Of a stretch of DNA of 31,092 nucleotides, positions 19,762 through 30,536 are shown one piece after another; position 1 is the stretch's first letter, and each line of letters begins with the position of its first letter. The stretch is taken from the UHGV virus genome UHGV-0204578. One strand, given 5' to 3'. The translations under genes and the position numbers were made by a program. This DNA comes from a virus. Below the pieces are notes generated by a model. The model saw only the letters and a list, made by a program, of their open reading frames with translations. It was not told where the DNA came from and did not search any database.

Positions 19762-20787
19762 ATGACCATCAGAAAACAGCCGAACGGAAAGTGGTTATGT
19801 GAATGCTACCCAAACGGGAGAGATGGCAAACGCGTACGCAAACAATTTGCGACGAAAGGCGAAGCCATTGCGTTTGAGAATTTCACCATGGATGAGGTAA
19901 ACAAGAAACCTTGGCTGGGAGAAAAGGAAGATCGGCGACAACTGTCAGAAGTGATTGAGCAATGGTATTCCCTGTACGGTCAGACACTCGCTGACCCTAA
20001 GCGATTAATGGCTAAGTTAAAAATCATTTGTAATGGACTTGGCGATCCCATCGCTTCTGAATTGACAGCAGGTGATTTCACAAAGTACCGGGAAGCCAGA
20101 TTAAAAGGTGAGGTCAAAAACGAAGATGGCGTGCTCATGTCACCGGTTAAGCCCAGAACGGTGAACCTTGAACAGCGTAACCTATCCTCAGTTTTTGGCA
20201 CACTGAAAAAGCTGGGACATTGGTCTGCACCCAACCCCCTCGCCGGTCTGCCAACTTTCAAAATTGCAGAAGGTGAACTGGCGTTCCTTGCTGCTGATGA
20301 AATCAAACGCCTGCTTGACGCATGTGCTGAATCTCAAAGTCCCAGTCTGCTAATGATTGCCAAGATTTGCCTGGCTACCGGGGCAAGATGGAGCGAAGCC
20401 GAAAACCTGCAAGGTAACCAGATATCAAAGTATCGAATTACCTATACCAAAACAAAAGGAAAGAAAAACCGAACTGTTCCTATTTCTCAGGAACTGTATG
20501 AAGAATTACCCAAAAACAGAGGAAAGTTATTCACACCATGCCGAAAGGCTTTTGAGCGTGCGGTAAAACGAGCTGGAATTGAACTACCTGAAGGTCAATG
20601 TACCCACGTTCTGCGCCACACTTTCGCCAGCCACTTTATGATGAACGGCGGAAACATTTTGGTATTGAGGGATATTTTAGGACACGCTGATATTAAAATG
20701 ACCATGATTTATGCCCATTTTGCACCTGATCATCTGGAAGATGCCGTTACCAAAAATCCACTTCATAACCTCAACTGGCATCGCTAA
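19762..20787 (+). CDS. int: Tyrosine integrase (P2/186 Int family)
   Basis: 341-aa ORF with C-terminal catalytic region HVLRHTFASHFMMNGGNILVLRDILGHADIKMTMIYAH (R..H..R..Y signature); reads toward the att core. Confidence 0.9.
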   Translation: MTIRKQPNGKWLCECYPNGRDGKRVRKQFATKGEAIAFENFTMDEVNKKPWLGEKEDRRQLSEVIEQWYSLYGQTLADPKRLMAKLKIICNGLGDPIASELTAGDFTKYREARLKGEVKNEDGVLMSPVKPRTVNLEQRNLSSVFGTLKKLGHWSAPNPLAGLPTFKIAEGELAFLAADEIKRLLDACAESQSPSLLMIAKICLATGARWSEAENLQGNQISKYRITYTKTKGKKNRTVPISQELYEELPKNRGKLFTPCRKAFERAVKRAGIELPEGQCTHVLRHTFASHFMMNGGNILVLRDILGHADIKMTMIYAHFAPDHLEDAVTKNPLHNLNWHR

Positions 20788-21060: not shown

Positions 21061-21114
21061 ATTGGTATACGTTTAGGTATACGGTAGGATGTATACCTAA
21101 AAACGTATACCAAT
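21061..21114. promoter_or_regulatory. Inverted repeat of a 22-bp motif (ATTGGTATACGTTTAGGTATAC) upstream of the satellite integrase; candidate Int arm sites or int operator
   Basis: Arms at 21061..21082 and 21091..21114 are near-perfect reverse complements; a third copy (one mismatch) lies at 30515..30536. Confidence 0.5.
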
Positions 21115-21133
21115 TCATGAAGGAGCGGCCACA

Positions 21134-22327
21134 GTGGCACGGACAACACGCCCCCTTACCAACACCGAAGTTCTGCGCGCTAAGGCGTTAGAGAAGGATC
21201 TAACGCTGCACGATGGCGACGGGCTTTTCCTGATAGTGAAAACTAGTGGCAAAAAGCTCTGGCGCTTTCGCTATCAACGTCCGGTAACAAAGCAGCGGAC
21301 AATGATGGGGCTCGGTGCCTTCCCCGCCCTATCGCTTGCTGATGCCCGAGGATTAAGAGCGGATTACCTTGCCTTATTAGCCAACGGACTCGACCCGCAA
21401 ATTCAAACTGAAGTTGCAGAGGAACAGCAGCAAATAGCACTGGACAGTATTTTTTCAACGGTCGCCGCTAACTGGTTCCAGCTCAAAAGCAAAAGCGTTA
21501 CCCCTGATTACGCAAAAGACATTTGGCGCTCACTGGAGAAAGATGTATTCCCTGCCATCGGTGAGATCCCCGTTCAGCAAATCAAAGCACGGACACTGGT
21601 TGAAGCTCTTGAGCCAATCAAAGCTCGTGGGGCGCTTGAGACTGTACGTCGACTGGTGCAGCGCATTAACGAGATAATGATTTATGCCGTAAACACTGGC
21701 CTGATTGATGCTAATCCAGCATCAGGTGTTGGGATGGCCTTTGAGAAGCCCAAAAAACAAAACATGCCGACGCTTCGGCCAGAAGAGTTACCAAAACTCA
21801 TGCGTTCTTTGGTGATGTCAAATCTCTCTGTTTCGACTCGCTGTTTAATTGAATGGCAACTCCTGACGCTTGTGCGCCCTTCTGAGGCCTCCGGTGCTCG
21901 TTGGGCAGAAATCGATCTCGATGCAAAGCTTTGGACTATTCCAGCCGAACGGATGAAGGCGAAACGTGAGCACATAGTTCCTCTCTCAACTCAGGCATTA
22001 GAGATTCTCGAAGTGATGAAACCAATCAGCGCTCACCGTGAACATGTTTTTCCCAGTAGGAATGATCCAAAACAATCCATGAATAGCCAAACAGCTAATG
22101 CAGCTTTGAAGCGTATAGGATATGGAGGAAAATTAGTTGCACACGGTTTACGATCTATTGCAAGTACTACATTGAATGAAGCGGGCTTTAATTCAGATGT
22201 GATAGAAGCGGCATTAGCTCATACAGATAAAAATGAGGTAAGAAGAGCATATAACCGCTCTATCTATTTAAAGCAAAGAATAGGCATGATGGAATGGTGG
22301 GGTGAAAAAGTTTATAATAAAAACTGA
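21134..22327 (+). CDS. int: P4-family integrase (IntA-like tyrosine recombinase)
   Basis: 397-aa ORF, GTG start with AAGGAG 8 nt upstream; N-terminus MARTTRPLTNTEV...DGDGLFLIVKTSGKKLWRFRY typical of P4/CP4-57 integrases; sits about 185 bp after the ssrA 3' end as intA does in E. coli K-12. Confidence 0.9.
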   Translation: MARTTRPLTNTEVLRAKALEKDLTLHDGDGLFLIVKTSGKKLWRFRYQRPVTKQRTMMGLGAFPALSLADARGLRADYLALLANGLDPQIQTEVAEEQQQIALDSIFSTVAANWFQLKSKSVTPDYAKDIWRSLEKDVFPAIGEIPVQQIKARTLVEALEPIKARGALETVRRLVQRINEIMIYAVNTGLIDANPASGVGMAFEKPKKQNMPTLRPEELPKLMRSLVMSNLSVSTRCLIEWQLLTLVRPSEASGARWAEIDLDAKLWTIPAERMKAKREHIVPLSTQALEILEVMKPISAHREHVFPSRNDPKQSMNSQTANAALKRIGYGGKLVAHGLRSIASTTLNEAGFNSDVIEAALAHTDKNEVRRAYNRSIYLKQRIGMMEWWGEKVYNKN

Positions 22328-22366
22328 AAAAAAAATAAAAGCTCATTCTTATGAGCTTTTATTTTC
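22328..22366. terminator. Bidirectional intrinsic terminator between int and the cargo operon
   Basis: Hairpin aaaagctcat-tctt-atgagctttt flanked by an A-run on one side and a T-run on the other. Confidence 0.65.
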
Positions 22367-22964
22367 CTGCATTACCTTTCGAATTATCAGCATCCTGTTT
22401 ATTTTGAAAAGTCATAAAGGTATTATACCAACTAGAAACACGGAATATAGCAAGAACAGCTGCTAATGCAGAGAATACTGAGTAAATAAATATAAAGTAA
22501 GCAAAAAAACTAAATATTAATAACGCATACTTATAGAAAACACCTAAATAATAATACATAAAAGCATTATTTATGAGAATACTACTATAGGCCTTGGTAA
22601 CCAAGGCCGTAATAATAGTTAGTAATTGCAACAATATAAAATGGACAAAAGTTGCATTGACTGACATATAAGGAGAATATTCTACTTCCCCACTTTCACT
22701 TTTTTCATCACCAGTTATTATTTTTTTAAAGGCCTCATCACCAATAGCTATCCACATAGCAAAACCACCTAATGAAAAGCCCAGAAGGTTCGGCATCAAT
22801 GACAGGATATCATTCCACCACCCCTGATGAGACCAAGATGGATAAAGAATCACTGTCATTAAAAAAGCACACCAAAAATAGCGACTTTTAAACACAGCCC
22901 CAGCGCCACCATAGATTTTCCAGTATCTAGCCAATGCACTGGTTGATTCTTTTTCTTCACTCAT
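22359..22964 (-). CDS. Uncharacterised integral membrane protein (201 aa, about 4 TM helices); downstream gene of cargo cassette
   Basis: Hydrophobic segments YFWCAFLMTVILYPSW, ILSLMPNLLGFSLGGFAMWIAIG, VHFILLQLLTIITALV, YALLIFSFFAYFIFIYSVFSALAAVLAIF; start overlaps the upstream gene stop (TAATG); AT-rich. Confidence 0.7.
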   Translation of the reverse strand: MSEEKESTSALARYWKIYGGAGAVFKSRYFWCAFLMTVILYPSWSHQGWWNDILSLMPNLLGFSLGGFAMWIAIGDEAFKKIITGDEKSESGEVEYSPYMSVNATFVHFILLQLLTIITALVTKAYSSILINNAFMYYYLGVFYKYALLIFSFFAYFIFIYSVFSALAAVLAIFRVSSWYNTFMTFQNKQDADNSKGNAGK

Positions 22965-23893
22965 TACTTTCTCAGAAGCCTCTTAAATTCATCTGCTAAT
23001 GATTTTGCCCTTAATAACAATAGCTCAGAAACCGATGTTACGTCAGAATCATATGGTTCGACCCTTTGAAGTGGTACGTCACTTGAGGCATGAACCTCTA
23101 CTAATCCCGCCTCATTAATCCTGCGTATACTAACTTCACCATTTCTCGAAGCAATAAGAGCATCCTGTTTTAACTCACCATCAGGTTTAATTTCCTGACC
23201 TCGCTCAGATTTATATGTTTTATCCTCTTCAATAACCCCAATACGCTTGAAGCGCTTTTGCATAACATTTTCTGCAGAAGCGAGATCATCCGGATTAGGA
23301 CGTCGAGTGACCATATTTATACACGTAATACCTTTTAAAGAAAGCATACGTTCTACACTATCTGGCTCAGTCAATATTGTAACATTAACCTTTCCAAATT
23401 TCTCTATAATTCTCTCGTGAGAAAATATCCCATTCAGAAAGCTTTCTATTTGTCTTGGTGTAAGATGCCGGCTCTTGTCCTGCATTTCGTAAACTAAAAG
23501 ATGACTTGCGGGTAGAAAAACAAAAGAGAATCTAGCTACATTTGGTTTTAAATTATCAGGTATATTTATTCTTTCCTTTTCCTCATCTGAAGCTATATCT
23601 TTCTTTACGATATCGAACCAGTCGCCATTAACGTCAATATCTGTATACTTTAGAATTTCCCCCTCAAAAGGTTCACTAATTACCTGACCTTTCTTATAAG
23701 GATAAAAATATGATAAAGTTGCGAATGAGTCTCCTCTTAAATTAACATTGCTCGCATTTTTTCTTGCCATCCTGAATAACTCGACATACTTTTCTGGCGA
23801 GTGGGGGTGCATGGATATATTCACAGCCCCGTAAGTTAATTTTTTTGCCCTTGCCATTTTTATCTTTGTTCCCTTATTTCGTGAAAGAATCAT
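22964..23893 (-). CDS. Uncharacterised soluble protein (309 aa; 297 aa if start is ATG at 23857); upstream gene of cargo cassette
   Basis: Intact AT-rich ORF with no TM segments and no catalytic motif I recognise (no Walker A, no GS..DxD nucleotidyltransferase motif, no HxH); translationally coupled to the membrane protein gene. Confidence 0.7.
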   Translation of the reverse strand: MILSRNKGTKIKMARAKKLTYGAVNISMHPHSPEKYVELFRMARKNASNVNLRGDSFATLSYFYPYKKGQVISEPFEGEILKYTDIDVNGDWFDIVKKDIASDEEKERINIPDNLKPNVARFSFVFLPASHLLVYEMQDKSRHLTPRQIESFLNGIFSHERIIEKFGKVNVTILTEPDSVERMLSLKGITCINMVTRRPNPDDLASAENVMQKRFKRIGVIEEDKTYKSERGQEIKPDGELKQDALIASRNGEVSIRRINEAGLVEVHASSDVPLQRVEPYDSDVTSVSELLLLRAKSLADEFKRLLRK

Positions 23894-24078
23894 ATATACA
23901 TGAAAGGCTTAGGGAAAACTATGTCTTAACGCACACCATCTAATAGCCAAAGGAAATAAAAATACAATTCATTATTCAAAATGGGAATATTATTTCCTCC
24001 ACGGATAATGCTCATTGGTTCCACTACCAGATTCGTAAAAATTAAAAAAACAACATCCAAGAACAGCGCGCAATGCTC

Positions 24079-24100
24079 TCCCCGCCACGCCTGCCCGCTT
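24079..24100. other. cos site of the P4-type satellite, identical 22-mer to the helper cos
   Basis: TCCCCGCCACGCCTGCCCGCTT identical to 12560..12581; flanks also similar (ttttaatgcaggtgcatga versus ttttcatgcacctgcatga). Located between cargo and psu, where P4 cos lies. Confidence 0.6.
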
Positions 24101-24264
24101 CTTGGGGCGCTTTTAATGCAGGTGCATGAAGTGGCTCAGGCCGCGCCGCGACTGGCGCTGGTCGGGAGTACAGGAGCGGGAAAACGCATGCAAAACCATG
24201 CACCCTTTGGATGCATGGCTTAATTCGGGAAAAATGGCGGGAATTACGAGGATTTTTTGACAGG

Positions 24265-24831
24265 TTACGGCGCGGCCAGTTCGGCGCGTCGACGGGTGTA
24301 AATCATGCTCTGTGCAGGGGTGAATTTTTCACGATTATCATCCCGCGAAGGCGCGTCAGGCCTGTATCCGATGGCCGTTAAAATATCGCTATCCTGTGCC
24401 GAATAATTAATTTCATTTCCTGCGGCCAGCCAGACGGAAAGAGCTTCTCGCAGGTATGCTACTGAACGGTCAAGCGCACGGTTTTTTATCATCGTGGGCT
24501 GGTTCTTAATTCCCATCAGCTCGGGTGCCAGTGCGGCGGCCAGCTCCGCGCCGTTCTGCTGCATAAAATCGTACAGCCGGTTACGGATGCTGATGCGCTG
24601 CACCTCCTCATGCGAGGAAATGTAGCGACCGGCGGCCTGATTAATCTCCCATTTTTTTACGTCAATAATATCTCGCAGCGTCTGTAATCTGCGGGAACCT
24701 GATGCGTTGTCATCCAGCAATAATTCCTGATATTCCTGTTCTGCGGCGGTCAGTTCGGCTTTACAGTTCAGCCACGCCGTTTTGTTCGTCTGACAGGCAT
24801 CGAACGCCTGCTGTAAGGTCAGGGTGGTCAC
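24265..24831 (-). CDS. psu: Psu (polarity suppression / capsid decoration protein)
   Basis: 188-aa ORF (GTG start) with strong similarity to P4 Psu (..LQQAFD.CQ.NK.AWL..K.EL.AAEQEY..NQAAGRYI.SHE.VQ.ISIR.RL.DFMQQ..). Confidence 0.85.
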   Translation of the reverse strand: MTTLTLQQAFDACQTNKTAWLNCKAELTAAEQEYQELLLDDNASGSRRLQTLRDIIDVKKWEINQAAGRYISSHEEVQRISIRNRLYDFMQQNGAELAAALAPELMGIKNQPTMIKNRALDRSVAYLREALSVWLAAGNEINYSAQDSDILTAIGYRPDAPSRDDNREKFTPAQSMIYTRRRAELAAP

Positions 24832-24847
24832 GGGTTGTCTCTCCTGA

Positions 24848-25093
24848 TTAATGGTGGAACGGTGAGCTGTAGCAGCTTTTTACCCGGCGGGGTGTAACGG
24901 GTACTGTCGGCACCGGTGCGGGTTTCTCATCGACGACCGGGGAACGGATCACCTCAAAGATGGACTCATGCGTTTTGAATGTCGCCGAGCAGTGCACATT
25001 CTGGCACTGGAGGTAACTCTCTTTGACGCTGTCAGACATATAGCGGCTGGTGCGAACGTGGGCCGCTGTGCGACAGAAAGGGCAGCGCATCAT
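24848..25093 (-). CDS. delta: Delta/Ogr-family zinc-finger late-gene activator
   Basis: MMRCPFCRTAAHVRTSRYMSD...YLQCQNVHCSATF mirrors P2 Ogr (CPLCQHAAHARTSRY...HQCQNVNCSATF). Confidence 0.85.
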   Translation of the reverse strand: MMRCPFCRTAAHVRTSRYMSDSVKESYLQCQNVHCSATFKTHESIFEVIRSPVVDEKPAPVPTVPVTPRRVKSCYSSPFHH

Positions 25094-25827
25094 GACAGTA
25101 ACCCTCGTGCTTTCAGATCGGCTTCACGTTCCTGCATTTTTTCCTGCCAGACTTTTCGCTGACCGGGCGTGGCCGCAACGTCATGCTCCATATGTGGCAG
25201 CGTGGAGGCCGCCAGCCCTGTTTTAAAAAGCACTGGTTCATCAGTCAGACGGATATTGCAGTCCTTCACCGCCTGCTCAAGCCATGATTTCACCTTATGC
25301 ATAACGGCATGCTCTGGTTCGACATAGCCCTGATGCCCGATGGTGTTGGCAAGCGGATTTTCTTTAACCAATATGCTGAGTTTCATTGCTCTAACGAGTG
25401 CGCCGCAGGTTTCACGTAGGGCGGCATCGAGTTCATGCTCTGCATACTGGCTGAGTACGCCGTGATGCGCCTGACGGTATGTTCTGGCCGTGCTGTCACA
25501 GGCTCCCCGAAGGCTGTCCAGCTCGAAAGACAGCACCTCAGCCATGTTGTCACATTCCAGTGCCAGCTCCCGCCGTGCCACGCGCGCAATATGGCGTTGT
25601 TTCAGCTCGTCGGTAATGACAGCACCACCGGCACGAAAGGCGGTGCGCCATGCACCGGAATCATTGCCGTTTTCCTGCTCCAGTTCAGTTTTTTGCGTTT
25701 TCACCTGGCTGATGGCCGTCGTGGTTTCGTCCATGCGTCGGGCATTGGTCAGATGTGCTTCTCTGGCCGTCTCAAGACTTTCTATTGCGGGTTTAAGGTA
25801 GTCGGGAATAACAGCGGTCTGAGTCAT
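25090..25827 (-). CDS. sid: Sid (capsid size determination external scaffold)
   Basis: 245 aa from ATG at 25827 (GAGGAGA RBS); position and length as P4 sid, upstream of delta and psu; helical, Gln/Glu-rich. The track ORF start at 25893 is an upstream extension. Confidence 0.75.
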   Translation of the reverse strand: MTQTAVIPDYLKPAIESLETAREAHLTNARRMDETTTAISQVKTQKTELEQENGNDSGAWRTAFRAGGAVITDELKQRHIARVARRELALECDNMAEVLSFELDSLRGACDSTARTYRQAHHGVLSQYAEHELDAALRETCGALVRAMKLSILVKENPLANTIGHQGYVEPEHAVMHKVKSWLEQAVKDCNIRLTDEPVLFKTGLAASTLPHMEHDVAATPGQRKVWQEKMQEREADLKARGLLS

Positions 25828-25899
25828 GTCGGGTCTCCTCTTCGTTTCAATCTGAGGAGATTCTGCCGCGCCGGACACAACAACACGATTCATTGCCGT

Positions 25900-25917
25900 T
25901 GTGGCAAAAATGGCACA
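25900..25917 (-). promoter_or_regulatory. Psid late promoter activator site (TGT-N12-ACA)
   Basis: tgtggcaaaaatggcaca centred about 81 bp upstream of the sid ATG; same dyad type as the helper late promoters. Confidence 0.6.
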
Positions 25918-26004
25918 AACAGACCTTAAAACCCGGCTGGCCAGAGAAAGGTCTCATGAAAACATTACTCACCGTTTGTTTTTTTACTTATAACTATTCA
26001 CTAC

Positions 26005-26114
26005 TGTTCACTGAAAAGAAAAAGATAAGTAATACAGTAAGTTAAAGGGTGAACAGTTGAAGGTCTGACTGTTCACCGTCTGTTCACCACTGTTCACCTT
26101 TCAGTTTGTTCAGC
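26005..26114. repeat. Iteron cluster (TGTTCACC type), candidate alpha-binding ori/crr element
   Basis: Exact TGTTCACC at 26070, 26081 and 26091 (10 to 11 bp spacing), inverted GGTGAACA at 26048, degenerate copies at 26005 and 26107. TGTTCACC is the P4 type I iteron. Confidence 0.65.
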
Positions 26115-26367
26115 CAGTCAGCCACTTAGACTTTTTGGCGATTAAAAAACAGAAGTATATAAACAAAAGTAATCAGCAATGGGCCACCGGTTTGCCAACG
26201 TTTGCCAAAAAACGGCCAACGTTTGCCACTGTATAAAAATCGCTCTGTTGTGTGGTGGAGTACTACAAAATGACTTGTTGCCCTGAGGGAAAATATTCAC
26301 AAAATAGAGAGCTACCCGAAGCCGGACGGACACGACCGGCACTGTATGGACTTTGTGAGGTAGCCCG

Positions 26368-26634
26368 ATGCACACCGTTTTTTCTTCCCCGTCTTCTGCC
26401 CCTGCCGCGCCGCTGATGCCGGTTTCTGATACCGTTCACGAACGCTTTATCCGTCTGCCCGAAGTGATGCATCTGTGCGGCCTGTCCCGCTCGACCATTT
26501 ACGACCTCATCAGCCGGGAAGCCTTCCCGAAACAAATCTCCCTCGGCGGAAAAAATGTGGCGTGGGCGCAGTCTGAAATCACTGCATGGATGGCGGATCG
26601 CATTGCCGAACGTAACCGGGGCTATGACGCATGA
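26368..26634 (+). CDS. alpA: AlpA/Vis-family small DNA-binding regulator
   Basis: 88-aa ORF with the AlpA-type HTH segment [49 protein letters not shown]. Confidence 0.75.
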
Positions 26635-26761
26635 TGATGATCGCTCAGCAAACAGCCCCTTTTTCTGGCTTGCTTCTTTTCGCCATTTCCAGGTATAGTT
26701 TTCCCGCTGTCGCAAAATCGACAGCCGGGCGTGGAAACCCGAGCAACTCGAAGGCGACACC

Positions 26762-26785
26762 AGACGCGCCATGCGTCTTTTTTTG
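26762..26785 (+). terminator. Intrinsic terminator inside an untranslated leader
   Basis: agacgc-gccat-gcgtct hairpin followed by TTTTTTT, in the roughly 400-bp gap between alpA and the next RBS-bearing start. Confidence 0.55.
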
Positions 26786-27032
26786 TGTCGCAACTAACGC
26801 CACAGAGCGCCAGATAATGGCGTGGTGTGCGGATCGTCGTGCAGACGTCACTTTGTGTCTCCTGTCCGCAATCGCATATCATGCTGTCATGTCAATGGTA
26901 GCTCAGGCGGGGCAGCCCTCGGGCTGGCCGGTATTCTTCGAGGCCGGTATTTCCACCCCCGTCTGGGCTATCGCCACTGAGCGTGGAAACTCCGGCGATA
27001 GCAATAATTTGCTACTCGAAGGAGGTTGCCTT

Positions 27033-27227
27033 ATGGCTACGACCCTCACCCCGTCACAGCCTCAGTTTGTCTTTGTGTTTGCCGCCGTCCGTCGTGCAGA
27101 CCGTAAGCCCCGTATCTGTATGCTCCGCACCGTTGCCGGTGACGAGCACGCCGCACGTCTTTCCCTCGTTCGCGATTACGTCCTCTCGTTCGCTGGCCGT
27201 CTGCCGGTTGCGGAGGTGCGCGCATGA
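27033..27227 (+). CDS. Hypothetical small protein (64 aa)
   Basis: ATG at 27033 preceded by AAGGAGG (7-nt spacing). The upstream in-frame 134 codons of track ORF 26631..27227 contain the terminator, look non-protein-like and are rejected. Confidence 0.5.
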
Positions 27228-27451
27228 GACACACCACCATTACCGCCCGTGACCTCGAATGCCTTGAGCACATGCGCAACGTCGGCCAGCTCGTCAATGA
27301 GCTGATGCAGGTGCAGGACTGTACGGCCGTTCGTCGTGACCCTGCTCAGCAGTCACAGCTCACCTCCGTGATTTACCTTATGACCGCCCAGCTCGACGGC
27401 GTGGTTGAGCGCTGCAATCAGCACTGGCTGACCGGGGAGGGCAACGTATGA
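27224..27451 (+). CDS. Hypothetical small protein (75 aa)
   Basis: ATGA-coupled to the previous ORF, GGAGGTG RBS. Confidence 0.55.
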
Positions 27452-27768
27452 AACAGCCATTACCGCCCGTATTACGCGCCGCGCTGTATCGTCGCGCCGT
27501 GGCCTGTGCATGGCTGACGGTGTGCGAATGCCAGCACCGCTACCCGCACCTCACCCTCGACGCGCTGGAAAGCGCCATTGCCGCCGAGCTGGAGGGCTTC
27601 TATCTGCGCCAGCACGGCGAGGAAAAGGGCCGTCAGATTGCCTGTGCATTACTGGAAGATTTAATGGAAGCCGGGCCACTGAAAGCCGCGCCGTCACTGT
27701 CCTTTCTCGGGCTCGCGGTGATGGATGAACTTTGCGCCCGTCACATCACATCGCCTGTACTGCACTGA
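27448..27768 (+). CDS. Hypothetical protein (106 aa)
   Basis: ATGA-coupled to the previous ORF, directly upstream of alpha. Confidence 0.55.
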
Positions 27769-27782
27769 GGGAGAAAATAACA

Positions 27783-30116
27783 ATGAAAATGAATGTAACG
27801 GAAACCGTAAAACAGGCCTGCGGCCACTGGCCGCGCATTCTCCCGGCGCTGGGTGTGAAGGTCATTAAAAACCGCCATCAGGCCTGCCCGGTATGCGGCG
27901 GCTCTGACCGCTTTCGCTTTGACGATAAAGAGGGGCGCGGCACGTGGTTCTGTAACCAGTGCGGCGCGGGTGACGGCCTTAAACTGATTGAGAGGGTATT
28001 CGATGTATCTGCCTCAGAGGCCGCCCAAAAGGTGAATGCTGTCACCGGCAACCTGCCGCTGGTTGCCCCGGAGGTGATTGCGGCCGCAGAGGCTGAAACC
28101 GATGCCGACCGCAAAGCGGCGGCCGAGCTGGCCGTAAAACTCATGGAGAAGACCCGCACGGCTGCCGGCAATGCCTACCTGACCCGCAAGGGCTTCCCCG
28201 ATAGTGAATGTGTGATGCTGACGGCCACACATAAAACCGGCGGTGTGACGTACAGTGCCGGGGATTTGGTTGTTCCGCTGCATGACCATTCCGGCGCGCT
28301 GGTTAATCTTCAGCTTATCAATGCTGAGGGTCTCAAACGCACCCTGAAAGGCGGCGCGGTGAAAGGGGCATGCCATATCATCGAAGGGCAGAAACAGGCA
28401 GGAAAACGCCTGTGGATAGCAGAGGGCTATGCAACAGCACTCACCGTGCATCACCTGACTGGCGAAACCGTCATGGTGGCGCTGTCGTCCGTGAACCTTC
28501 TTTCTCTGGCGAGCCTTACCCGACAAAAGCACCCGGCCTGTCAGATTGTCCTCGCCGCCGACCGCGACCTCAGCGGGAACGGCCAGACCAAAGCCGCAGC
28601 GGCTGCACTGGCTTGTGAGGGCGTTGTTGCCCTGCCGCCGGTATTTGGTGACTGGAATGATGCGTTTATGCAGCAGGGTGAGGACGCCACACGCAAAGCT
28701 GTCTATGGTGCCGTCCAGCCAGCCACACAAAGCCCGTTCGACACCATGAGCGAAGCCGAATTTACCGCCATGAGCGCCAGCGACAAGGCTTTGCGGGTAC
28801 ATGAGCATTACGGCGAAGCGCTGGCGGTGGATGCGAACGGCCAGCTCCTGTCCCGCTATGAAAACGGCATCTGGAAAAATATCCCTGCCGCCACTTTTTC
28901 ACGGAATGTGGCTGATTTATTCCAGCGCTTACGCGCCCCGTTCTCATCCGGGAAAATCGCCTCGGTGGTGGAGACCCTGAAACTGATTATTCCGCAGCAG
29001 GATACACCTGCGCGCCGTCTGATTGGTTTTCGTAACGGGGTGCTGGATACCCAAAGCGGGATATTCAGCCCACACAGCAAATCGCACTGGCTGCGCACCC
29101 TGTGCGATGTGGATTTTACCCCGCCGGTGGACGGGGAAACGCTGGAGACGCACGCGCCGAACTTCTGGCGCTGGCTCGACCGTGCGGCCGGTAAAAATCC
29201 ACAAAAACGCGACGTGATTCTGGCCGCGCTGTTTATGGTGCTGGCGAACCGTTACGACTGGCAGCTCTTTCTCGAAGTCACCGGTCCCGGTGGAAGCGGT
29301 AAAAGTATTCTGGCCGAAATTGCGACCCTGCTCGCCGGGGAAGATAACGCCACGTCAGCCGATATCGACACACTGGAAGACCCGCGCAAGCGTGCCTCCC
29401 TGATTGGCTTCTCGCTTATCCGTCTGCCAGACCAGGAAAAATGGAGCGGTGACGGCGCAGGACTTAAGGCCATCACCGGCGGCGATGCGGTCTCAGTTGA
29501 CCCGAAATACCAGAACCCATACTCAACACATATTCCGGCGGTGATTCTGGCCGTGAACAACAACCCCATGCGCTTCACCGACCGCAGCGGCGGTGTGTCG
29601 CGCCGCCGGGTGATTATCCACTTCCCGGAGCAGATTGCGCCGGAGGAACGCGACCCGCAGCTCAGGGATAAAATTGCGCGCGAGCTGGCCGTGATTGTGC
29701 GCCAGCTTATGCAGAAATTCAGCGACCCGATGACTGCACGCGCACTGCTCCAGTCGCAGCAGAACTCCGACGAGGCACTCAGCATCAAGCGCGATGCTGA
29801 CCCGACGTTTGATTTTTGCGGCTATCTGGAAATGCTCCCGCAGACCAACGGGATGTTTATGGGGAATGCCAGCATCATCCCGCGTAATTATCGTAAATAT
29901 CTCTATCATGCGTATCTGGCCTATATGGAGGCCAACGGATACAGAAACGTGCTCAGCCTGAAAATGTTCGGGCTGGGGCTGCCCATGATGCTGAAAGAGT
30001 ACGGCCTGAATTATGAGAAGCGGCACACCAAGCAGGGGATACAGACTAACCTGTCGCTGAAAGAGGAAAGCTACGGCGACTGGCTGCCTAAGTGCGACGA
30101 ACCCACAGCGATATAA
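27783..30116 (+). CDS. alpha: Alpha primase-helicase (P4 alpha family)
   Basis: Starts MKMNVTETVKQ... (GAGGGAG RBS), giving 777 aa, the P4 alpha length as I remember it. N-terminal zinc-binding primase motif CPVCGGSDRFRFDDKEGRGTWFCNQCGAGDG; Walker A GPGGSGKS in the helicase domain. Confidence 0.9.
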   Translation: MKMNVTETVKQACGHWPRILPALGVKVIKNRHQACPVCGGSDRFRFDDKEGRGTWFCNQCGAGDGLKLIERVFDVSASEAAQKVNAVTGNLPLVAPEVIAAAEAETDADRKAAAELAVKLMEKTRTAAGNAYLTRKGFPDSECVMLTATHKTGGVTYSAGDLVVPLHDHSGALVNLQLINAEGLKRTLKGGAVKGACHIIEGQKQAGKRLWIAEGYATALTVHHLTGETVMVALSSVNLLSLASLTRQKHPACQIVLAADRDLSGNGQTKAAAAALACEGVVALPPVFGDWNDAFMQQGEDATRKAVYGAVQPATQSPFDTMSEAEFTAMSASDKALRVHEHYGEALAVDANGQLLSRYENGIWKNIPAATFSRNVADLFQRLRAPFSSGKIASVVETLKLIIPQQDTPARRLIGFRNGVLDTQSGIFSPHSKSHWLRTLCDVDFTPPVDGETLETHAPNFWRWLDRAAGKNPQKRDVILAALFMVLANRYDWQLFLEVTGPGGSGKSILAEIATLLAGEDNATSADIDTLEDPRKRASLIGFSLIRLPDQEKWSGDGAGLKAITGGDAVSVDPKYQNPYSTHIPAVILAVNNNPMRFTDRSGGVSRRRVIIHFPEQIAPEERDPQLRDKIARELAVIVRQLMQKFSDPMTARALLQSQQNSDEALSIKRDADPTFDFCGYLEMLPQTNGMFMGNASIIPRNYRKYLYHAYLAYMEANGYRNVLSLKMFGLGLPMMLKEYGLNYEKRHTKQGIQTNLSLKEESYGDWLPKCDEPTAI

Positions 30117-30125
30117 CCTACCTCA

Positions 30126-30149
30126 GACCGGCAACAGCCGGTCTTTTCC
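30126..30149 (+). terminator. Intrinsic terminator after alpha
   Basis: agaccggc-aaca-gccggtct followed by TTTTCC. Confidence 0.6.
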
Positions 30150-30168
30150 TTTCTGGCCATTGCCACAG

Positions 30169-30455
30169 GGTGAACAATCCACTGCTCACCCTTCACCGTA
30201 TATTCACCCTGTATCACCATGAAATTATTGATAAAAAACCAGAGGTGAACAGTGTGAACAGTAAAACCTGAAAAAACTTTTTATCACCCCTCACATCGCC
30301 TGAGCGGACGGTTCCAGAACGAGCACAAATCACAAAGGTGAAGAGTCGACTGTTCACTCTTCACCAACCATTCACCACTTATCATTATGATATTAAAAAG
30401 AAAAAAAGAGAGGTGAACAGTGTGAACAGTTAAATGCAAAAAAACTTTTTTTTAA
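30169..30455. repeat. Two tandem ~168-bp repeats, each carrying TGTTCACC-type iterons (crr-like cis replication region)
   Basis: Units starting near 30169 and 30337 are clearly homologous; GAGGTGAACAGTGTGAACAGT occurs in both (30242 and 30410), with several TTCACC/GGTGAA half-iterons. Confidence 0.65.
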
Positions 30456-30514
30456 TGCGTTCCATTCAAAAAAACAGGTTTGCAAAACCAAAGTAAACAC
30501 TACAGCAAATCGCC

Positions 30515-30536
30515 ATTGGTATACGCTTAGGTATAC
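30515..30536. repeat. Third copy of the 22-bp GGTATAC-containing arm motif near the satellite right end
   Basis: ATTGGTATACGCTTAGGTATAC; one mismatch to 21061..21082. Confidence 0.5.

Follow-up and report, generated by a model that had tools for sequence, protein, structure and literature searches.

The stretch at positions 26635–27032 of the UHGV virus genome UHGV-0204578 (31,092 nucleotides, analysed in full and called the window here) is very probably the region of a P4-like satellite prophage that provides immunity and early control, with its elements in the P4-like order vis, PLE, seqA, t1, cI, seqC and kil. The RNA immunity switch found here is of a well-known kind and leaves the understanding of the mechanism unchanged; its recognition sequences differ from those of P4. 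The original prediction had placed a P4-type small-RNA immunity or attenuator module in this region, between alpA and the replication cluster. The module is supported by three Rfam matches, by homology to P4 and by covarying pairing between CI and its targets, and the location proved right, with the AlpA-family gene at 26368–26634 on one side and the primase-helicase gene at 27732–30116 beyond the other.

Elements of the RNA switch

Scanning the whole window against Rfam gives exactly three matches above the curated thresholds (E-values 2e-13, 3e-14 and 2e-9), all on the plus strand and all inside this region:

26693–26745, plus strand: c4-a1b1 (RF03163), 48.5 bits against a gathering score of 46.7
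26706–26783, plus strand: isrK (RF01394), 73.9 bits against a gathering score of 50, a full-length model match
26891–26978, plus strand: C4 antisense RNA (RF01695), 76.1 bits against a gathering score of 45, covering the full model (1–87)

Matches to let-7, GcvB and RF_site3 nearby, with E-values of 0.3–10 and scores far under their gathering scores, were set aside as chance. P4's own immunity region gives the identical set of three matches (c4-a1b1, isrK and C4), and in P4-like prophages the IsrK-like element is the seqA RNA and the C4-like element the CI RNA (PMC3632133, PMC4825925). A search by covariance model had been suggested as a check on the presence of a P4-type CI RNA, and the C4 match provides it. 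The top blastn match in the phage collection is the satellite phage P4 itself, at 81% identity over a span that takes in vis, the intergenic region, kil, ORF106 and the start of alpha. When the immunity regions of the window and P4 are aligned, the mean column identity is 88%, and the P4 record has the same order as the window, running from sid through the ori repeats, ORF88 (vis) and the historical “cI protein” ORF on to alpha. As far as can be judged from sequence, every defining feature of P4 immunity is present. The elements of the switch, several of them assigned by homology, are as follows:

26670..26699, plus strand: putative constitutive promoter PLE, with –35 TTGCTT at 26670–26675, an 18-nt spacer and –10 TATAGT at 26694–26699
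26706..26783, plus strand: leader RNA (seqA RNA, IsrK-like; Rfam isrK and c4-a1b1), with two hairpins, the a1 and b1 boxes and the terminator
26731..26737, plus strand: a1 box GUGGAAA, in the loop of leader hairpin 2, 7 pairs with a'
26747..26754, plus strand: b1 box CUCGAAGG, 8 pairs with b', one of them G-U
26762..26785, plus strand: intrinsic terminator, with a 7-pair stem at 26762–26778 and a T run to 26784
26891..26978, plus strand: gene of the CI / C4-type antisense RNA (Rfam C4)
26934..26942, plus strand: b' box UUCUUCGAG, in the loop of CI hairpin 2, one of two specificity determinants
26950..26956, plus strand: a' box UUUCCAC, in the unpaired CI junction after hairpin 2, the second specificity determinant
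26967..27002, plus strand: hairpin of 26967–26975 (GCUAUCGCC, the CI 3' end) with 26994–27002 (GGCGAUAGC), a 9-nt complementarity
26983..26989, plus strand: a2 box GUGGAAA, part of seqC, 7 pairs with a'
27015–27023, plus strand: b2 box CUCGAAGGA, 9 pairs with b'

The putative PLE is placed by homology, its –10 aligning with the “consensus –10” of the P4 record X02534. A generic sigma-70 promoter scan of 25800–27400 found no site, and PLE fell below the threshold because its –35 matches the consensus at three of six positions. The isrK match downstream of it ends in the terminator that had been pointed out from the sequence at 26762..26785, and this terminator is indeed there: a positional and sequence homolog of P4 t1, nearly identical in P4 in the alignment, its hairpin already present in the minimum-free-energy fold without CI. 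A Rho-independent terminator between the putative promoter and cI is one of the features that define the P4 type. The name t1, the dependence of the terminator on CI and its role in CI autoregulation reportedly go back to Briani et al. in 2000, a study cited in PMC4825925. In the minimum-free-energy fold of the full 335-nt leader, seqA pairs with CI in cis, a result to which we give no weight because such folds are unreliable for long RNAs.

The mature CI RNA would span approximately 26897–26976. Its architecture consists of a 17-pair basal stem, two hairpins, an unpaired junction and a tRNA-like GCCA 3' end, the GCCA following directly on the basal stem. The C4 region folds at –48.2 kcal/mol (minimum free energy; z = –5.6 against dinucleotide shuffles) into the structure of the family, and the C4-type fold, with its long basal stem, two hairpins and unpaired junction, is likewise a defining feature of the P4 type. 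What had been read as a tandem repeat at about 26925..26951 is present as two copies of GGCCGGTATT, at 26926 and 26942, but these are not a functional tandem repeat: since GCCGGU is self-complementary, they are the arms that form the stem of the second CI/C4 hairpin. No tRNA or tmRNA genes were found in the window. The CI RNA of P4 is a substrate of RNase P (PMC5499578).

Complementarity among sub-segments of the leader, which had also been put forward as a check, was searched for and found, the CI boxes b' and a' pairing with boxes both upstream and downstream. The unpaired CI sequence (seqB) is thus complementary to seqA upstream and to seqC downstream, again a defining feature of the P4 type, and b2 overlaps the Shine-Dalgarno sequence GGAGG (27021–27025) of kil, upstream of its ATG at 27033. 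The hairpin at 26967–27002 is an alternative pairing of the 3' end of the CI stem that shows a2 in its loop, and its pairing is maintained in Serratia/Rahnella-type loci by two compensatory double changes (UACCACC with GGUGGUA); the hairpin presumably has a function. Equivalents of P4 t4 or timm were not located from sequence; the hairpin, followed by AAUAAUUUG, might be a candidate for the atypical terminator t4 of P4.

Covariation of the target boxes

All six boxes differ from those of P4 and do so in mutually compensating fashion, complementarity being kept at all three sites. In the order upstream, CI and downstream, the a boxes read GUGGAAA/UUUCCAC/GUGGAAA in the window and GUGAGAA/UUCUCAC/GUGAGAA in P4, and the b boxes read CUCGAAGG/UCUUCGAG/CUCGAAGGA in the window and UUCACAGG/CCUGUGAA/UUCACAGGA in P4. 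For a wider comparison we retrieved 77 related loci with a pattern for the CI scaffold in which both loops were given as N; the sources were 66 IMG/VR contigs and 12 species genomes, including those of Serratia, Rahnella, Hafnia, Ewingella and Klebsiella. Among these loci are 12 different b loops and 3 different a boxes, which occur in 18 combinations; that of the window (b UUCUUCGAG with a UUUCCAC) recurs in two loci, L011 and L016.

Full cognate pairing at all four targets is seen in 37 of the 41 distinct haplotypes; the relatives are closely related and many of the covarying loci are not independent, the 12 b and 3 a types still being distinct alleles. When the loops were permuted among the haplotypes (200 trials), 3.7 haplotypes on average, and never more than 9, were fully cognate. 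The b pairing is 8–10 nt long for cognate partners and 2–8 nt for clearly different loops, and only CUCGAUGGA and UUCGAUGGA, which are one base apart, cross-pair in a cognate-like manner (8–9 nt).

The targets are mismatched or degenerate in the other four haplotypes (L027, L028, L035 and L063). In L028 and L063 the b1 box of seqA, and in L028 the a1 box too, is of another immunity type than the element's own CI and seqC, while L027 and L035 have degenerate b targets. Recombination or decay is the probable origin of all four.

The boxes appear to reassort by recombination among P4-like satellites. We put at about even the chance that these satellites carry a modular two-box RNA “immunity code”, the window being one allele among many mutually heteroimmune satellites. 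Competition of satellites for a common host and helper could drive the diversity of alleles. The comparison itself covers covarying alleles, and that these alleles correspond to immunity groups is an extrapolation that may hold, with phiR73 as the sole published precedent. This P4-like retronphage was reportedly found by Sabbattini et al. in 1996 (Virology 216:389, cited in PMC7567579) to be heteroimmune to P4 through altered seqA, seqB and seqC.

The reading frame across the RNA module

The RNA module is flanked and crossed by protein-coding frames:

26368..26634, plus strand: vis/alpA, 88 aa (Pfam Phage_AlpA, 3.1e-20), homolog of the equally long P4 ORF88
26631..27227, plus strand: eta-like ORF of 198 codons, the first 134 crossing the RNA module and the last 64 being kil
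27033..27227, plus strand: kil / Icd-like, 64 aa (NCBIfam phage_ICD_like, 3.2e-22), with its ATG at 27033–27035

The ATG of the eta-like ORF at 26631 overlaps the stop codon of vis (ATGA, 26631–26634), and kil is approximately 86% identical to P4 kil. An ORF that runs from the vis stop across the RNA module and ends as kil is the nested eta/kil arrangement of P4. In the passage of PMC10111431 that summarises Forti et al. 1999, P4 eta is presented as a long reading frame whose translation is coupled to that of the alpA homolog and which contains the constitutive promoter; Kil, the C-terminal part of eta, is translated from PLE transcripts, and translation of eta from late-promoter transcripts prevents termination. 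By analogy, kil would be the first gene translated from PLE transcripts in the window, and late (PLL) transcripts would enter the region through vis.

The region had been described as having no convincing coding potential. That holds in the sense that variable sites among 57 relatives show no third-position excess over 26637–27032 (47/54/46 by codon position), whereas they do in vis (33/24/71) and in kil read from the ATG at 27033 (19/10/48). It does not hold for the frame as such, as 26631–27227 is kept stop-free in relatives: counting back from the kil start, 58 of 67 relatives, distant genera included, have 125 codons or more without a stop in the kil frame, and the other two frames have 2–10 stops over the same leader stretch. 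A frame open by chance, which the lack of periodicity could suggest, was rejected in view of the stop-free Serratia, Rahnella and Hafnia loci and the published description of eta. An open frame with no amino-acid constraint is the pattern expected of selection on the act of translation itself, and on this reading of the sequence the region seems to serve two uses, as an RNA switch and as a translated frame. It had been argued that translation of the 198-codon ORF throughout would refute the RNA model. This does not follow, because the frame fits the P4 eta model, and P4 eta, translated from late-promoter transcripts, coexists with the RNA mechanism.

Several protein families have been assigned to this DNA. 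The family phrog_6928 (“transcriptional repressor”) covers the whole of ORF 26631–27227, phrogs 995, 821 and 3960 (“transcriptional regulator”) match residues ~79–146, which are the translated C4/CI RNA gene, and in PGAP annotation the homologous stretch of E. coli DNA appears as “Icd-like” or “ash family”.

It could accordingly be supposed that the region is the 5' part of the gene of a 198-aa protein, that the protein carries the function and that the matches to RNA families are incidental, a reading we hold to be extremely improbable. It would account for a frame that is open and stop-free in most relatives, for the Icd-like/ash-family protein placed by PGAP and for the match of PHROG 6928 to the entire translation at 1.3e-78. 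The members of that PHROG, however, are themselves translations of this conserved DNA, and it bears P4's historical “cI protein” label, and the sole curated protein domain (Icd-like) is wholly confined to the last 64 codons of the ORF. The substitution pattern of 26637–27032 is unlike that of vis and kil, two 1-nt indels separate the window from P4 inside the ORF, and compensatory changes at three sites are explicable only at the RNA level. In P4 genetics, nonsense and frameshift mutations that spare the RNA boxes and structures reportedly leave immunity intact.

The other two alternatives accept an RNA switch and concern how it acts. One holds that a mechanism of the P1/P7 type dominates, CI/C4 covering the ribosome binding site of the Icd-like gene and downstream silencing being Rho-dependent polarity and not factor-independent termination induced by CI. 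We consider this somewhat unlikely. In its favour, b2 extends into the GGAGG of kil, the operon opens with an Icd-like gene, as does P1 immI, one Rfam clan holds both P1 C4 and the RNA of the window, and the local fold can sequester the Shine-Dalgarno sequence (CUCC at 26990 with GGAG at 27021). Yet a canonical intrinsic terminator, conserved with P4, stands between promoter and CI, and the genes downstream are orf75, DUF5375 and the primase, with no ant among them. Both mechanisms are in any case compatible, and P4 is reported to use the two of them. The other alternative makes the IsrK-like leader at 26706–26783 a trans-acting regulator as in Gifsy-1, the ratio of leader to CI setting the switch; in its variants the leader would be a sponge for CI through a1/b1, or would open the structure at the kil ribosome binding site and so activate translation. 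The terminator in this leader is, however, said to serve CI autoregulation in P4, in the description attributed above to Briani et al., and we judge a trans-acting role quite improbable. No complementarity of the leader to the 5' region of kil was found except through CI, and a target context of the anrP/antQ type is absent. Compatible with such a role are the 73.9 bits of the isrK covariance model, the presence of both CI-complementary boxes in the leader, the action of Salmonella IsrK in trans on its own long isoform (PMC4825925) and the requirement for IsrK-like elements of P4-like prophages in S. Typhi TraDIS (PMC3632133).

Mechanism, related systems and setting

We therefore return to the switch of the P4 type, for which the promoter, transcript ends, processing and termination are all modelled here on the homologous P4 elements. 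PLE, with its –10 at 26694, would be constitutive, and transcription would start near 26706. Transcripts that read through the terminator would be cut by RNase P at the tRNA-like GCCA stem and trimmed at the 3' end leaving a stable CI RNA some 80 nt long. By pairing with a1/b1 on the nascent leader, CI would increase termination at the terminator and thereby regulate its own synthesis; by pairing with a2/b2, it would block translation of kil and end transcription prematurely, before the replication genes (orf75, DUF5375 and the alpha primase) are reached. With those genes silenced, the prophage would stay quiet and superinfecting elements of the same type would be excluded. On activation by a helper, late-promoter transcripts from upstream of vis would be translated from vis into the overlapping eta frame, and ribosomes crossing the leader would override the CI-dependent termination.

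The nearest known system is the immunity of P4 itself (PLE-seqA-t1-cI-seqC-kil/eta, described by Ghisotti, Deho and co-workers), with which the window shares the gene order, approximately 81% nucleotide identity, the three Rfam matches, the terminator, the CI scaffold, the positions of the target boxes and the nested eta/kil frame coupled to vis. It differs at all three sites of each box, with the a box GUGGAAA in place of GUGAGAA and the b box CUCGAAGG in place of UUCACAGG, in a 75-aa ORF (phrog_10110) that replaces epsilon and orf151 downstream, and in the sequence of the ori “type 2” repeat.

A related arrangement is found in the immI region of P1 and P7 (C4, a1 b1 / a2 b2, icd-ant), which has the same RNA family and clan (C4, RF01695, and c4-a1b1, RF03163), the same logic of two boxes upstream and downstream, an Icd-like first gene, and an RNA processed out of the transcript that it controls. 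Unlike immI, the operon controlled here has satellite replication functions, and a terminator lies between a1b1 and the RNA gene. No antirepressor (ant) family was matched downstream of kil, where the ORFs are phrog_10110, DUF5375 and the primase-helicase.

The IsrK/STnc1160-orf45-anrP system of Salmonella Gifsy-1 is similar in that the leader in the window matches the isrK model end to end, terminator included, and that a C4-like RNA lies downstream, which in Gifsy-1 is processed from read-through transcripts (PMC4825925). The Gifsy-1 targets are in contrast the antirepressor AnrP and AntQ in a lambdoid prophage, and IsrK trans-activation belongs to Gifsy-1; no orf45-anrP antirepressor operon lies downstream of the module in the window, where the gene content is that of the P4 replication operon. 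Small processed RNAs of the same family are also known as the anti-immunity CA RNA of the N15-group linear plasmid prophages (N15, phiKO2 and PY54). The CI/C4 segment matches phiKO2, PY54 and related Klebsiella phages at 73–79% identity (blastn, phage collection), a similarity confined to ~110–300 nt, and the RNA in that group controls an antirepressor in a temperate phage and not a satellite replication operon.

The location is also that of P4: the order vis, RNA module, kil, orf75, DUF5375, alpha primase is colinear with P4, DUF5375 being P4 ORF106, and on the other side of the module lie the further satellite genes, for Psu, Ogr/Delta, a Sid-like protein and an integrase. The epsilon gene of P4, which acts in helper derepression, and orf151 are absent from 27224–27451, and a 75-aa ORF (phrog_10110, 4e-45) is found instead; given the 186-type CI repressor of the adjacent prophage, we speculate that it may be an alternative derepressor. 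On the minus strand at 22359–23893, at the position of the P4 defence hotspot between integrase and psu, are two genes, for DUF4747 (309 aa) and for a 201-aa protein (phrog_20580). PADLOC models gave no match to either gene, and the two are candidates for an undescribed cargo or defence pair.

Octamers TGTTCACC/GGTGAACA, the “ori type 1” repeat of P4, occur in a cluster upstream of vis at 26048–26098 and in a second cluster just after alpha at 30169–30450, the latter within two 114-nt direct repeats with a spacing of 168 nt; the layout resembles that of P4 ori and crr. The repeats that had been noticed upstream of alpA exist, as three copies of GTTTGCCA at 26190, 26200 and 26221, but they are part of the stretch upstream of vis that holds the replication origin and the late promoter, outside the immunity module. 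The three copies (26190–26228) occupy the position of the three “ori type 2” repeats of P4 (GCTTTAAGTG and variants) and are unrelated to these in sequence, which in a comparison of the two origins reads as an exchange of the repeat unit with its position kept.

A 22-nt direct repeat, ATTGGTATACG(T/C)TTAGGTATAC, is found at 21061–21082 and 30515–30536, 9454 bp apart; it brackets the span from the integrase to crr and is a candidate for attL/attR of the satellite. The DNA from 1 to ~20800 is a P2/186-like prophage that directly adjoins the P4-like satellite (21061–30536). It has genes for baseplate J, a P2-type capsid, the GPO scaffold, terminase, portal and gpA, and also for a Dam methylase, CII/CP76, a CI repressor and an integrase (19762–20787). 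As this prophage lies directly beside the satellite, a potential helper and a satellite are integrated in tandem. The DNA comes from E. coli, its right flank being ypjA of that species at 99.4% identity, and all 5426 E. coli genomes contain a match to part of the 346-nt junction. The insertion site would presumably fit the ssrA/CP4-57 locus.

In annotation, these ~400 bases are usually assigned to a protein named “transcriptional repressor”, “Icd-like” or “ash family”, and a better description is an RNA switch (PLE, seqA leader with terminator, CI RNA and seqC) laid over the eta/kil frame. As both the a and the b boxes differ from those of P4, the element is predicted to be heteroimmune to P4, so that the prophage would be immune to its own type and not to P4. 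The covarying alleles offer a ready and testable series of immunity specificities among P4-like satellites.
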